64,000 bases of DNA from an archaeon. GTDB lineage: Archaea; Nanobdellota; Nanobdellia; SCGC-AAA011-G17; GW2011-AR17. The position numbers were made by a program, and so were the translations under genes. Below, piece after piece: positions 5,812-39,741 of the stretch; the stretch's first letter is position 1; the number at the start of each line of letters is the position of its first letter. The notes under the pieces are model-generated. The model was given only the letters and a program-made list of their open reading frames with translations. It searched no databases and had not been told where the DNA came from. The DNA is taken from positions 6,463-70,462 of the forward strand of contig JBDRRK010000013.1 in NCBI GenBank assembly GCA_043825775.1, in the 5' to 3' direction.

Positions 5812-6165
5812 CTATTTTATAAAATTAAAACCATCAAAATGAATTTCTGTATCATCAGAACCATAAACTCTTTGAACTTCATATAATCCTTTTGTCCAAA
5901 TTGTTCCACTAGGTCCTACGTAATGAGTTGCTTCTAGAATTATTATTGCTGCTAAAGGTCTTGATAAGTTTCCATTTCCTTTTGTTTCTAATAAAGGAAT
6001 TACACCTTCTAGCCAATAATTTCTTTGACCTTGTTTTAGAAATTTATATACTCTTGCAGGCCTTAAATCTTTTGGGATACATTCTTCTAAACCTCTTCTT
6101 CCTTCATTAAATTCTCTAATGTTTCTTAATGCTAGATCTGGATTAAATTCAACTTGTATTCCCAT
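5812..6165 (-). CDS. Hypothetical protein
   Basis: 117-aa ORF filling the gap between flanking genes; no recognised motif. Confidence 0.6.
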   Translation of the reverse strand: MGIQVEFNPDLALRNIREFNEGRRGLEECIPKDLRPARVYKFLKQGQRNYWLEGVIPLLETKGNGNLSRPLAAIIILEATHYVGPSGTIWTKGLYEVQRVYGSDDTEIHFDGFNFIK

Positions 6166-6170
6166 AGAGA

Positions 6171-6782
6171 TTAGAATCTACTTGATTTATTTATATGTTT
6201 TTTGTTAGAAAATCCTATATGTTTCTTCCATTTATTTAGTTCTTTTAAACCATTCATCTGAATTCTTACTTTACCCTTACCAATATTATGAGTTCCATAA
6301 TTAAAATCATAAAAATTTAATAGTTCTTGAAATTGTTTCTGCATAGGTGAAGGAGATATTTTCATTTCGAGTCTAGGATATAATTTATTTCCATTTTTAG
6401 TGATAACAACACTTCTATCTGTGTCAAAATATCCTCTTAAAACATACTTTCCGTATTTTTTGTTTATGAGAGAATCTGGAATTATTGCTCTTTCCCATTT
6501 TGGTGCTTTTTTTAACCCAAAATCTAATAAGTTTAAAATAATATTTTTCTTAAAAACAAATATATCTATTGCTTTTTCTTTTTTTCTAGGTTTAATAATT
6601 GGTTTTTCATTTAGAACCTCACAAATTAATTTAGAAACATAATTAATATATTCTTTTTCCTCAGAACTTAATGTAATCTTTAACGCATAATATGTTGAAT
6701 ACTTTTCTGATTTATAAATAGCAATTGAACCATCTCCTAAAATGATTCCTACTAATTCAGCTGATTTTTTATTAATTATCAT
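6171..6782 (-). CDS. Stand-alone two-motif LAGLIDADG endonuclease-like protein
   Basis: Motif 1 AELVGIILGDGS; motif 2 LRGYFDTDRS (Gly replaced by Arg). Confidence 0.8.
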   Translation of the reverse strand: MIINKKSAELVGIILGDGSIAIYKSEKYSTYYALKITLSSEEKEYINYVSKLICEVLNEKPIIKPRKKEKAIDIFVFKKNIILNLLDFGLKKAPKWERAIIPDSLINKKYGKYVLRGYFDTDRSVVITKNGNKLYPRLEMKISPSPMQKQFQELLNFYDFNYGTHNIGKGKVRIQMNGLKELNKWKKHIGFSNKKHINKSSRF

Positions 6783-6854
6783 TATTTATTGAATATTTTG
6801 TTATTATATAAGTTCTGCGCGCATTTGTCATGTCAATGAGAAATATAAAAAATA

Positions 6855-6990
6855 TAGCGAGGGAAAGATTTGAACTTTCGACCTCCGGGTTATGAGCCTT
6901 CCGCAGTACTTTACGATTGTACTTCGACGGGCACTCCTGATTGGGTACCAGATCAATAAACCTTTGATTCCAGTTCTGCCCCACCTCGCT
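6855..6990 (-). tRNA. Initiator tRNA-Met(CAT) with two introns (6941-6975 and 6899-6924)
   Basis: After removing both inserts: AGCGAGG/CCTCGCT acceptor (A1-U72), GGGC/GCCC D-stem, TCGGG-CTCATAA-CCCGG anticodon arm with three G-C pairs, GAAAG-TTCAAAT-CTTTC T arm; 75 nt. Confidence 0.93.
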
Positions 6991-7065
6991 ATAGACTACA
7001 TTAAAAAACCCCCATTTAAAAACCTTTCCCAAACCTTTTTATAATGAAAATAACCTTTTTTTAGT

Positions 7066-7671
7066 ATGAAAAAGTTATTTATCCCTGCAAAGAGTGATGT
7101 AAAAATTGAACCTTTGTTAAAAAAAGTAAAATTAAAAGGAAAGATTGGAGTCCTTACTACTGTACAGCACCTGGATGAAGTAAAAAAAATAAAAGATAAG
7201 AGATTTGTTATTGGTGGTCAGATTTTGGGATGTAATGCAAGTAATGCAATGAAATTAAAAGTTGATTATTTACTCTATATTGGTTCAGGTAGGTTTCATC
7301 CTATTCAAATTGCTTTGGAAACTAATAAGGAAGTGTATATATTAAATCCATTTACAAAAGAATTTTCCAAATTAGAAAAGAAAAATGTAGATAGAATAAA
7401 AAAGAAAATTAAAGGGGCTTATTTGAAGTATTTGAATGCTAAAAAAGTTGGAGTTATTGTTTCTACAAAACCTGGGCAAAATAAGAAATTTGATATAAAA
7501 ACAGATAAGGAAATTTACTATTTTATGTGTGATAATGTTACTAATCAGATTGAGAATTTTCCTGACATTGATATTTGGATTAATACTGCTTGTCCTAGAT
7601 TAGCATATGAAAATGAGTTTAATGTTTCTATGATAAATATTGATGATTTGAAGGCTGCAGAAAACTTATAA
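7066..7671 (+). CDS. dph2: Diphthamide biosynthesis protein Dph2-like (short form)
   Basis: GQILGC, GSGRFHP, VSTKPGQ, NTACPR motifs. Confidence 0.8.
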   Translation: MKKLFIPAKSDVKIEPLLKKVKLKGKIGVLTTVQHLDEVKKIKDKRFVIGGQILGCNASNAMKLKVDYLLYIGSGRFHPIQIALETNKEVYILNPFTKEFSKLEKKNVDRIKKKIKGAYLKYLNAKKVGVIVSTKPGQNKKFDIKTDKEIYYFMCDNVTNQIENFPDIDIWINTACPRLAYENEFNVSMINIDDLKAAENL

Positions 7672-17468: not shown

Positions 17469-17576
17469 GCCCTGATAGTGTAGTCCGGTCTATCATGTTG
17501 CCCTGTCGAGGCAACGACCCGGGTTCGAAAAAGGGTTGCCAGGTTGAGGTGCCCCACGAAAGTCCCGGTTAGGGCG
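17469..17576 (+). tRNA. tRNA-Asp(GTC) with a 33-nt T-loop intron (17530-17562, position 59/60)
   Basis: GCCCTGA/TTAGGGC acceptor, TTGCC-CTGTCGA-GGCAA anticodon arm, CCGGG-TTCGAA/T-CCCGG T arm after splicing. Confidence 0.93.
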
Positions 17577-17579
17577 TGT

Positions 17580-36882: not shown

Positions 36883-39741
<2,859 letters not shown>

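Follow-up and report, generated by a model that had tools for sequence, protein, structure and literature searches.

The Thermoproteales encode multi-intron tRNAs with non-canonical BHB introns, for which the published maximum is three introns per gene (PMC3239211, PMC4390854); the pre-tRNA-Glu(UUC) of Pyrobaculum calidifontis is one with three (PMC4390854, PMC4033280). Multi-intron tRNAs are also established in ARMAN-2. Asgard archaea are reported to have up to five introns per tRNA gene, D-arm introns being often missed, and the route by which tRNA introns arrive has been described as open (bioRxiv 10.64898/2026.10.13.758758). Classically, alpha4 EndAs are regarded as able to cut strict BHBs and no others (PMC3239211). 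Non-canonical introns are associated with EndAs bearing specificity loops, and alpha4-type EndAs with an L3 loop have been noted in DPANN (PMC5829648).

Homing endonucleases form the other relevant group of described systems. F-CphI is free-standing beside the intron-containing psbA gene of cyanophage S-PM2, an arrangement known as collaborative homing, in which the intron prevents self-cleavage and the nuclease lends the intron mobility (PMC6083498); T4 mobE / I-TevIII is a comparable case (PMC2790892). The LAGLIDADG enzymes I-DmoI and I-Tsp061I are encoded inside archaeal rRNA BHB introns.

Taken alone, the initiator tRNA-Met (iMet) gene analyzed here is a further case of the known multi-intron archaeal tRNAs. 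The unexpected part is its nuclease neighbour, and the combination of a nuclease gene with a BHB-intron-bearing iMet gene joins two known kinds in a new form. Our literature search turned up no paper that connects free-standing LAGLIDADG genes with the tRNA genes of archaea or with their BHB introns.

The initiator tRNA-Met gene and its two introns

The window, a stretch of 64,000 nucleotides (C13:6463-70462), belongs to genome G000 (941,988 bp, 30% G+C, 96.4% complete), the DNA of which is present in groundwater metagenomes. We are highly confident that the locus described below provides this groundwater Woesearchaeota (DPANN) archaeon with its only initiator tRNA-Met gene, which is functional and predicted to be spliced. 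It occupies a 283-nt gap separating two protein genes, and its features are the following (window coordinates):

7014..7028, minus strand: archaeal promoter-like element, GAAAGG (BRE-like) then UUUUUAAAU (TATA-like), at -38 to -24 of iMet
6855..6990, minus strand: initiator tRNA-Met gene, 136-nt precursor, 75-nt mature tRNA, CCA not encoded
6976..6990, minus strand: exon 1, tRNA positions 1-15, from in-silico splicing and orthologue alignment
6941..6975, minus strand: intron 1, 35 nt, at 15/16 in the D-loop, relaxed BHB; site occupied in 8 species of the family
6925..6940, minus strand: exon 2, positions 16-29, from in-silico splicing and orthologue alignment
6899..6924, minus strand: intron 2, 26 nt, at 29/30 in the anticodon stem, canonical hBHBh'; absent in the congener G002
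6855..6898, minus strand: exon 3, positions 30-73, from in-silico splicing and orthologue alignment
6847..6852, minus strand: oligo-T run (U6), 2 nt past discriminator A73, a likely terminator by inferred function
5812..6165, minus strand: 117-aa ORF without Pfam match, a syntenic anchor common to G000, G001 and G002

Read on the minus strand from A1 (6990) to the discriminator A73 (6855), the locus consists of AGCGAGGUGGGGCAG, 35 nt of intron, UCAGGAGUGCCCGUCG, 26 nt of intron and GGCUCAUAACCCGGAGGUCGAAAGUUCAAAUCUUUCCCUCGCUA. In-silico removal of precursor nucleotides 16-50 (35 nt) and 67-92 (26 nt) leaves a 75-nt tRNA-Met(CAT) cloverleaf in ARAGORN, with the anticodon CAU in a 7-nt loop, CUCAUAA. 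The spliced molecule has the A1-U72 pair and the three G-C pairs G29-31/C39-41, both of which are found in all orthologues, together with U8, A14, G18G19 and the T-loop UUCAAAU as further tRNA hallmarks; these features bear out the initiator identity that had been assigned in the initial annotation. The numbering of the inserts (15/16, 29/30) follows Sprinzl and counts two additional D-loop residues, 17a and 20a. A promoter box (AAAG-N-TTTWTAAA) lies at equal distance upstream of the iMet orthologues. As the sole iMet candidate in the genome, the gene is predicted to function in initiation (MetRS charging, a/eIF2 binding).

We compared the precursor and mature iMet sequences by BLAST with 37 species of the family and, after splice-aware alignment, obtained 31 iMet genes. 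Ten of these are intronless 75-mers (G015, G019, G010, G013, G016, G008, G007, G022, G014 and G017), several of which share one and the same D-loop, AGUCAGGAGU. This D-loop is uninterrupted in G010, G016 and G018, and the intron-less orthologues read CAG-UCAGGAGU, matching the predicted 15/16 junction. Two genomes of the same genus carry iMet genes with one or both introns: G001 has both, and G002, the locus of which is syntenic with ours through the 117-aa ORF, keeps the 15/16 intron and has exon 2 fused directly to exon 3 at the predicted 29/30 junction. The uninterrupted junctions of intron-less orthologues thus settle both intron positions, which fall exactly, with lengths of 35 and 26 nt, where they had originally been placed.

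The 15/16 site had seemed rare in the initial annotation. The intron there is not confined to this gene: within the family it is carried by eight species, belonging to two genera, and it recurs in other families of the order. The 29/30 intron is present within the family in six species of four genera, and other iMet introns of the family lie at 8/9, 37/38, 43/44, 53/54 and 59/60, with four introns each in G011 and G029. Four-intron iMet genes were seen among the relatives' loci L127 (G112), L042 (G011), L008 (G029), L134 (G097), L125 (G212) and L136 (G049), some junctions of multi-intron relatives being placed approximately. The iMet gene of the one-contig genome G112 apparently has five introns (15/16, 29/30, 37/38, 44/45 and 59/60), more than the published maximum of three in Thermoproteales. 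We also observed that C33 replaces the near-universal U33 (anticodon loop CCCAUAA) in the initiator tRNAs of L032-L034 and L036-L039 (g13, g16) and of L123 (G234).

Both introns are framed by BHB elements as first described. That of intron 2 has the central helix CCGT/GCGG with four of four pairs, the bulges CG|A and AA|G and the stem AGTAC/GTACT. That of intron 1 has the helix GGGC/ACCC (G10-C13) with three of four pairs and the bulges AG|A and AA|U; its C13.A mismatch, also noted in the initial annotation, makes it a relaxed substrate in G000. In both elements two 3-nt bulges on opposite strands flank the helix, and cuts after the second nucleotide of each bulge would give the correct mature sequence. 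Nucleotides 10-13 are held by the first element and 22-27 by the second, in agreement with the earlier claim that the two do not overlap, so the motifs can coexist and neither excision needs the other.

The helices are kept across species. All six family carriers of the 29/30 intron have four of four helix pairs, the central helix being nearly invariant and the distal stems varying between carriers. The carriers of the 15/16 intron share a uniform geometry, in which the 5' strand of the D-stem (10-13) pairs with the four intron nucleotides before the terminal AA. Three or four of the four pairs are present in the seven carriers other than G000, and in the eight-species alignment the helix is 90.6% paired; two species have A-U where the others have G12-C, both strands having changed. 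For covariation the helix scores 0.337, whereas shuffled alignments average 0.198 (one of 500 shuffles reaches the observed value) and slid-partner controls score 0.04-0.17.

The unconstrained MFE fold of the G000 precursor reproduces the second BHB exactly. In the D-arm, free folding pairs nucleotides 8-11 with 46-49 and not 10-13 with 45-48, a one-pair register shift. This raises the alternative that the shifted helix (U8-G11/C46-A49) excises a different D-loop segment, a reading we consider very unlikely. Such an excision would delete A14 and G15, which are universally conserved in tRNA, and the resulting D-loop is found in no orthologue, while the CAG-UCAGGAGU of intron-less orthologues and the pairing and compensatory changes of the seven other species fit the canonical register. 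The canonical double-BHB fold is, moreover, only 0.4 kcal/mol costlier in G000 (-37.9 vs -38.3 kcal/mol) and is itself the MFE fold in the congener G001 (-46.3 kcal/mol).

Detection and processing of the gene

The initial annotation had suggested that standard scanners may miss this gene, and they do: the unspliced sequence is called neither by ARAGORN, with intron mode on or off, nor by the Rfam tRNA model RF00005, for which the top partial match reaches 19.7 bits (cut-off 29 bits). In a blind scan of the entire non-coding DNA of the genome, 137,206 candidate BHB pairs were spliced out, and four pairs gave a tRNA call: iMet at the exact predicted junctions and three calls on two real genes (Asn and Cys), each of which included a spurious second excision. 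This recovery shows that the combination of a BHB pair and a tRNA fold at the locus is not due to chance. In the blind double-splice scan of the genome, iMet was the only tRNA needing two non-canonical excisions.

The BHB-first scan also recovered non-canonical introns in Ser(GGA), Asn(GUU), Cys(GCA) and Gly(UCC), and no further 15/16 intron was found in G000 by its single- and double-splice versions, which are insensitive to relaxed motifs. Several other tRNA genes attracted our attention. Only about 24 tRNAs score above the Rfam cut-off in G000. At window positions 17470-17578 (plus strand), just upstream of tRNA-Lys(UUU), there is a hidden tRNA-Asp(GUC) with an intron of about 33 nt at 59/60 in the T-loop, which escapes both ARAGORN and Rfam (partial Rfam match of 18.8 bits). 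The tRNA-Ser(GGA) at C12:33974-34104 combines an anticodon-stem intron with a canonical one, and on inspection a non-canonical intron was seen in tRNA-Ile(GAU).

An intact initiator gene elsewhere, which would reduce this copy to a pseudogene, was looked for, and no second iMet gene was found in the 96.4%-complete assembly by BLAST, regular expression or BHB-splice scan; the gene is accordingly not refuted. Three metatranscriptome runs from the same study contained no contig over the iMet locus. One DNA run, reported to contain all sampled words of the window, likewise gave no contig over window positions 6700-7150; it yielded only the iMet 3' exons of relatives, the loose ends of which show intron-less iMet alleles from other populations of the same sample.

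For processing, we detected a single EndA gene in G000 (C2:145386-145952; 184 aa, with both N- and C-terminal Pfam domains). Among solved enzymes, NEQ205 of N. equitans and the alpha4 EndA of M. jannaschii are its best relatives. Its Y120, H130 and K161 align with the catalytic triad of the M. jannaschii enzyme. The two proteins are collinear, with no insertion in the G000 enzyme over residues 44-184, and the 6-residue insert of NEQ205 is absent. A search of G000 for a second EndA subunit found none, the only marginal match being noise upstream of an unrelated start codon, so we infer that the enzyme is an alpha4-type homotetramer. An RtcB gene is also present.

Processing of the iMet transcript would follow the established archaeal tRNA splicing pathway by analogy. 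Transcription would start from the BRE/TATA-like promoter about 25-38 nt upstream. The precursor would then fold with acceptor stem and T-arm intact, while two independent BHBs occupy the sites of the later D-stem and upper anticodon stem. EndA may cut in all four bulges, RtcB may ligate the three exons, and the D-stem and anticodon stem would form only once both introns have been excised; CCA would be added post-transcriptionally. A loop-less-looking alpha4 EndA set against relaxed motifs at many positions makes this locus an enzymology question in its own right.

A decaying pseudogene, broken by two insertions while another tRNA initiates, would agree with the silence of the standard scanners and of the metatranscriptomes, and we give this idea next to no credence. 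The locus holds the only iMet-like sequence of a 96%-complete genome, all of its exon nucleotides fit the family consensus, and its promoter box and T-run are conserved. Both insertions, furthermore, sit in BHB motifs with helices kept across species, and EndA and RtcB are present in the genome.

Removal by EndA and a ligase, predicted here, and intron presence that varies between close relatives are shared with the Thermoproteales. The two differ in the enzyme, an (alpha-beta)2 EndA with a Crenarchaea-specific loop there versus a single alpha4-like EndA in a mesophilic DPANN host. They also differ in intron transposition, which occurs in Thermoproteales, whereas a search for paralogues of either iMet intron elsewhere in G000 found none; transposition of that type, of which these missing copies leave no sign, was set aside. 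C/D-box guide RNAs within the introns were likewise rejected, the introns being too short and free of C or D boxes by eye. Our locus resembles those of the Asgard preprint and of PMC5829648 in its annotator-missed D-arm intron, in the number of introns per gene, up to five, and in repeated gains at BHB-compatible sites, and those of PMC5829648 in the association of DPANN alpha4-type EndAs with tRNA gene disruption. It differs in that the preprint reports no arrival route and no mobile-element enrichment near gains, whereas in G000 the tRNA gene has a homing-endonuclease gene right beside it, the presence of which correlates with an intron at one of the positions.

The 15/16 site lies next to G15, and the initial annotation had drawn attention to archaeosine at that position. 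This is probably moot, because the only TGT-family gene of G000 is not an ArcTGT:

38155..39321, plus strand: bacterial-type Tgt(34), 388 aa

The protein scores 398.6 bits against TIGR00430 (cut-off 306.75) and 173.7 bits against TgtA (cut-off 350), which makes archaeosine at G15 unlikely; judging from the gene content, it is probably absent in G000.

LAGLIDADG genes beside tRNA genes

Downstream of the iMet gene, at a distance of 73 nt and in the same direction, we detected a nuclease gene that the initial annotation had passed over:

6171..6782, minus strand: free-standing two-domain LAGLIDADG homing-endonuclease gene (P0002), 203 aa, from Pfam, AlphaFold2 and Foldseek

P0002 scores above the cut-offs of PF03161, PF14528 and PF00961, and its AlphaFold2 model (pLDDT 92.5) has a two-domain LAGLIDADG fold, with alpha-beta-beta-alpha-beta-beta-alpha in each domain. 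The top PDB matches in Foldseek are I-AniI, I-Tsp061I (TM-score 0.71) and I-DmoI (0.6-0.7), with less than 20% identity to solved enzymes. D17 and D122, the catalytic acidic residues of the two LAGLIDADG motifs, are conserved. Adjoining the latter, G123R sets P0002 apart in a set of 15 relatives; the G156 homologue has the consensus DTDG in motif 2. P0002 is an I-DmoI-like LAGLIDADG endonuclease with predicted site-specific cleavage. Like I-DmoI and I-Tsp061I, it would be a monomeric two-domain enzyme of about 200 aa linked to BHB introns of a stable-RNA gene. Unlike these, which are encoded within rRNA introns, it is free-standing and lies 73 nt outside a tRNA gene, the introns of which are only 26-35 nt long.

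No nuclease remnants were detected beside the iMet genes of G001 and G002. In G002, the slot of the G000 nuclease holds an unrelated 181-aa ORF (L007, 886-1431, minus strand). By eye, one stretch of it, LAYALGFIKGEGA, resembles LAGLIDADG, but it matches no Pfam model and has no homologue among the compared loci; the equivalent slot of G001 holds a different small ORF on the opposite strand. A second LAGLIDADG gene of G000 (C2:114575-115159) lies 73 nt downstream of tRNA-Arg(UCU) and 74 nt upstream of tRNA-Cys(GCA). The latter tRNA has a 30/31 intron and is miscalled by ARAGORN as a tRNA-Gln with intron.

Adjacency to tRNA genes is common in the family. We found 44 LAGLIDADG copies across 25 of the 37 genomes, and about 28 of the 36 copies examined lie within 260 nt of a tRNA gene, where chance adjacency would be about 3% per copy. 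Almost all of the adjoining tRNA genes are intron-bearing and 95-195 nt long. In a maximum-likelihood tree, the nuclease clades of the family follow the identity of the neighbouring tRNA (UFBoot/SH-aLRT support):

iMet neighbours: clade of 5 members, 100/100
Val(UAC) neighbours: clade of 4 members, 100/100
Arg(CCU) neighbours: clade of 3 members, 100/99
Thr neighbours: clade of 2 members, 100/99
Leu neighbours: two clades of 2 members, 99/99 and 100/100
Ile(GAU)/Asn neighbours: clade of 3 members, 100/100

The iMet clade includes one exception, a nuclease of G016 beside an intron-less iMet gene (L017, G016:C112). In the variable loop of this iMet (GGAAGUC) we noted that an A replaces the G, adjoining the 43/44 site; that this substitution gives target-site immunity is speculative. 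Separately, six LAGLIDADG genes (L093, L099 and L110-L113) form a clade (100/100) and have, like L090, no detectable tRNA neighbour. Either their tRNA is too disrupted to be seen or they have another target.

P0002 falls outside the family's own iMet clade. Its close relatives (clade B; 42-58% identity) are found in 17 genomes from nine other families of the order. For 16 of them an iMet gene is no more than 218 nt away; the remaining one is at a contig end. The iMet gene beside these nucleases has a 29/30 intron in 11 cases (12 with G000) and a 28/29 intron in five, which makes an intron in all 17 iMet genes adjacent to a clade-B nuclease when G000 is counted, the adjacency expected under collaborative homing. 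Across the order, about 96 genomes have an uninterrupted 28-30 junction and about 16 have a break at 28-31 with no clade-B nuclease nearby. The resulting table (17/0 vs 16/96) gives a Fisher p of 1.6e-12, uncorrected for phylogeny. The carriers belong to ten families, that of G000 included, and are a minority in each. The nuclease tree tracks cassette layout and intron set, not host family: the nucleases of G000 (f1) and G156 (f8) are sisters (99/96), and both cassettes combine the 15/16 and 29/30 introns, a 73-75-nt gap and a co-directional nuclease gene. The 15/16 intron is not linked to a nuclease; seven species of the family have it without a nuclease beside the gene.

Collaborative homing as a possible reading of the locus

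From this pattern, and with less certainty than for the gene itself, it seems probable that the 29/30 intron and the LAGLIDADG gene 73 nt downstream belong together. A tentative reading, for which the chances seem to us a little short of even, is collaborative homing by free-standing Woesearchaeales LAGLIDADG nucleases, each aimed at one tRNA gene, for which short BHB introns would be the sole way to alter the target DNA with the tRNA unchanged. The clade-B nuclease would recognize anticodon-arm DNA around positions 28-30 and cut intron-less iMet genes near 29/30. An intron at 28/29 or 29/30 would shield the carrier's own iMet gene, and double-strand-break repair would copy intron and nuclease together into intron-less genomes. 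The exons of a tRNA gene are not free to change in sequence, so an intron would be the natural escape from a nuclease that recognizes tRNA DNA. The patchy occurrence of clade B over ten families and the disagreement of its tree with the hosts are circumstantial signs that it may indeed home.

We also considered that the BHB introns are neutral and vertically inherited and that the nuclease merely uses the tRNA flank as a landing site or safe harbour, with no functional link. Tying intron to nuclease is harder in several genomes: G001 carries both iMet introns with no adjacent nuclease, about 16 genomes of the order are broken at 28-31 without a clade-B nuclease nearby, and the 15/16 intron occurs in seven family species with no nuclease beside the gene. 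The G123R change in motif 2 of P0002 points the same way, and tRNA genes are classic integration targets of mobile elements. Neutral introns sit poorly, however, with a 28/29 or 29/30 intron in 17 of 17 iMet genes adjacent to clade B against about 96 uninterrupted genomes, with carriers spread as minorities over ten families, and with a nuclease tree ordered by cassette layout, in which G000 and G156 are sisters despite their different families (f1 vs f8). Introns left behind after nuclease loss are, besides, predicted by the homing cycle, and an intron without a nuclease, as in G001, fits its loss phase. The neutral reading therefore strikes us as rather doubtful, though it is one to be taken seriously.

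Under collaborative homing, the locus shares with F-CphI and mobE a free-standing nuclease that adjoins an intron-bearing gene, an intron wherever the nuclease is found, and a patchy, horizontal-looking distribution. It differs in combining a protein-spliced BHB intron with a LAGLIDADG enzyme, versus a self-splicing group I intron with an Endo VII or HNH nuclease, and cleavage and protection are here predicted.

Neither ARAGORN nor the Rfam tRNA model sees the sole initiator tRNA of G000, and the same is expected for many DPANN genomes. With iMet genes hidden from scanners, tRNA complements and statements of a "missing iMet" are unreliable for DPANN lineages.

For the question of homing, the order offers a convenient system, in which a clade of nucleases of about 200 aa faces a 22-bp-scale target in a universally conserved gene, and natural iMet alleles with the intron, without it and with the intron shifted by one nucleotide are at hand. 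If true, collaborative homing would account, by a route at the level of DNA and by selection, for how non-canonical introns are gained and pile up in archaeal tRNA genes. It would extend from self-splicing to protein-spliced introns, and it would explain the build-up of as many as five introns in certain tRNA genes, most of all in iMet.
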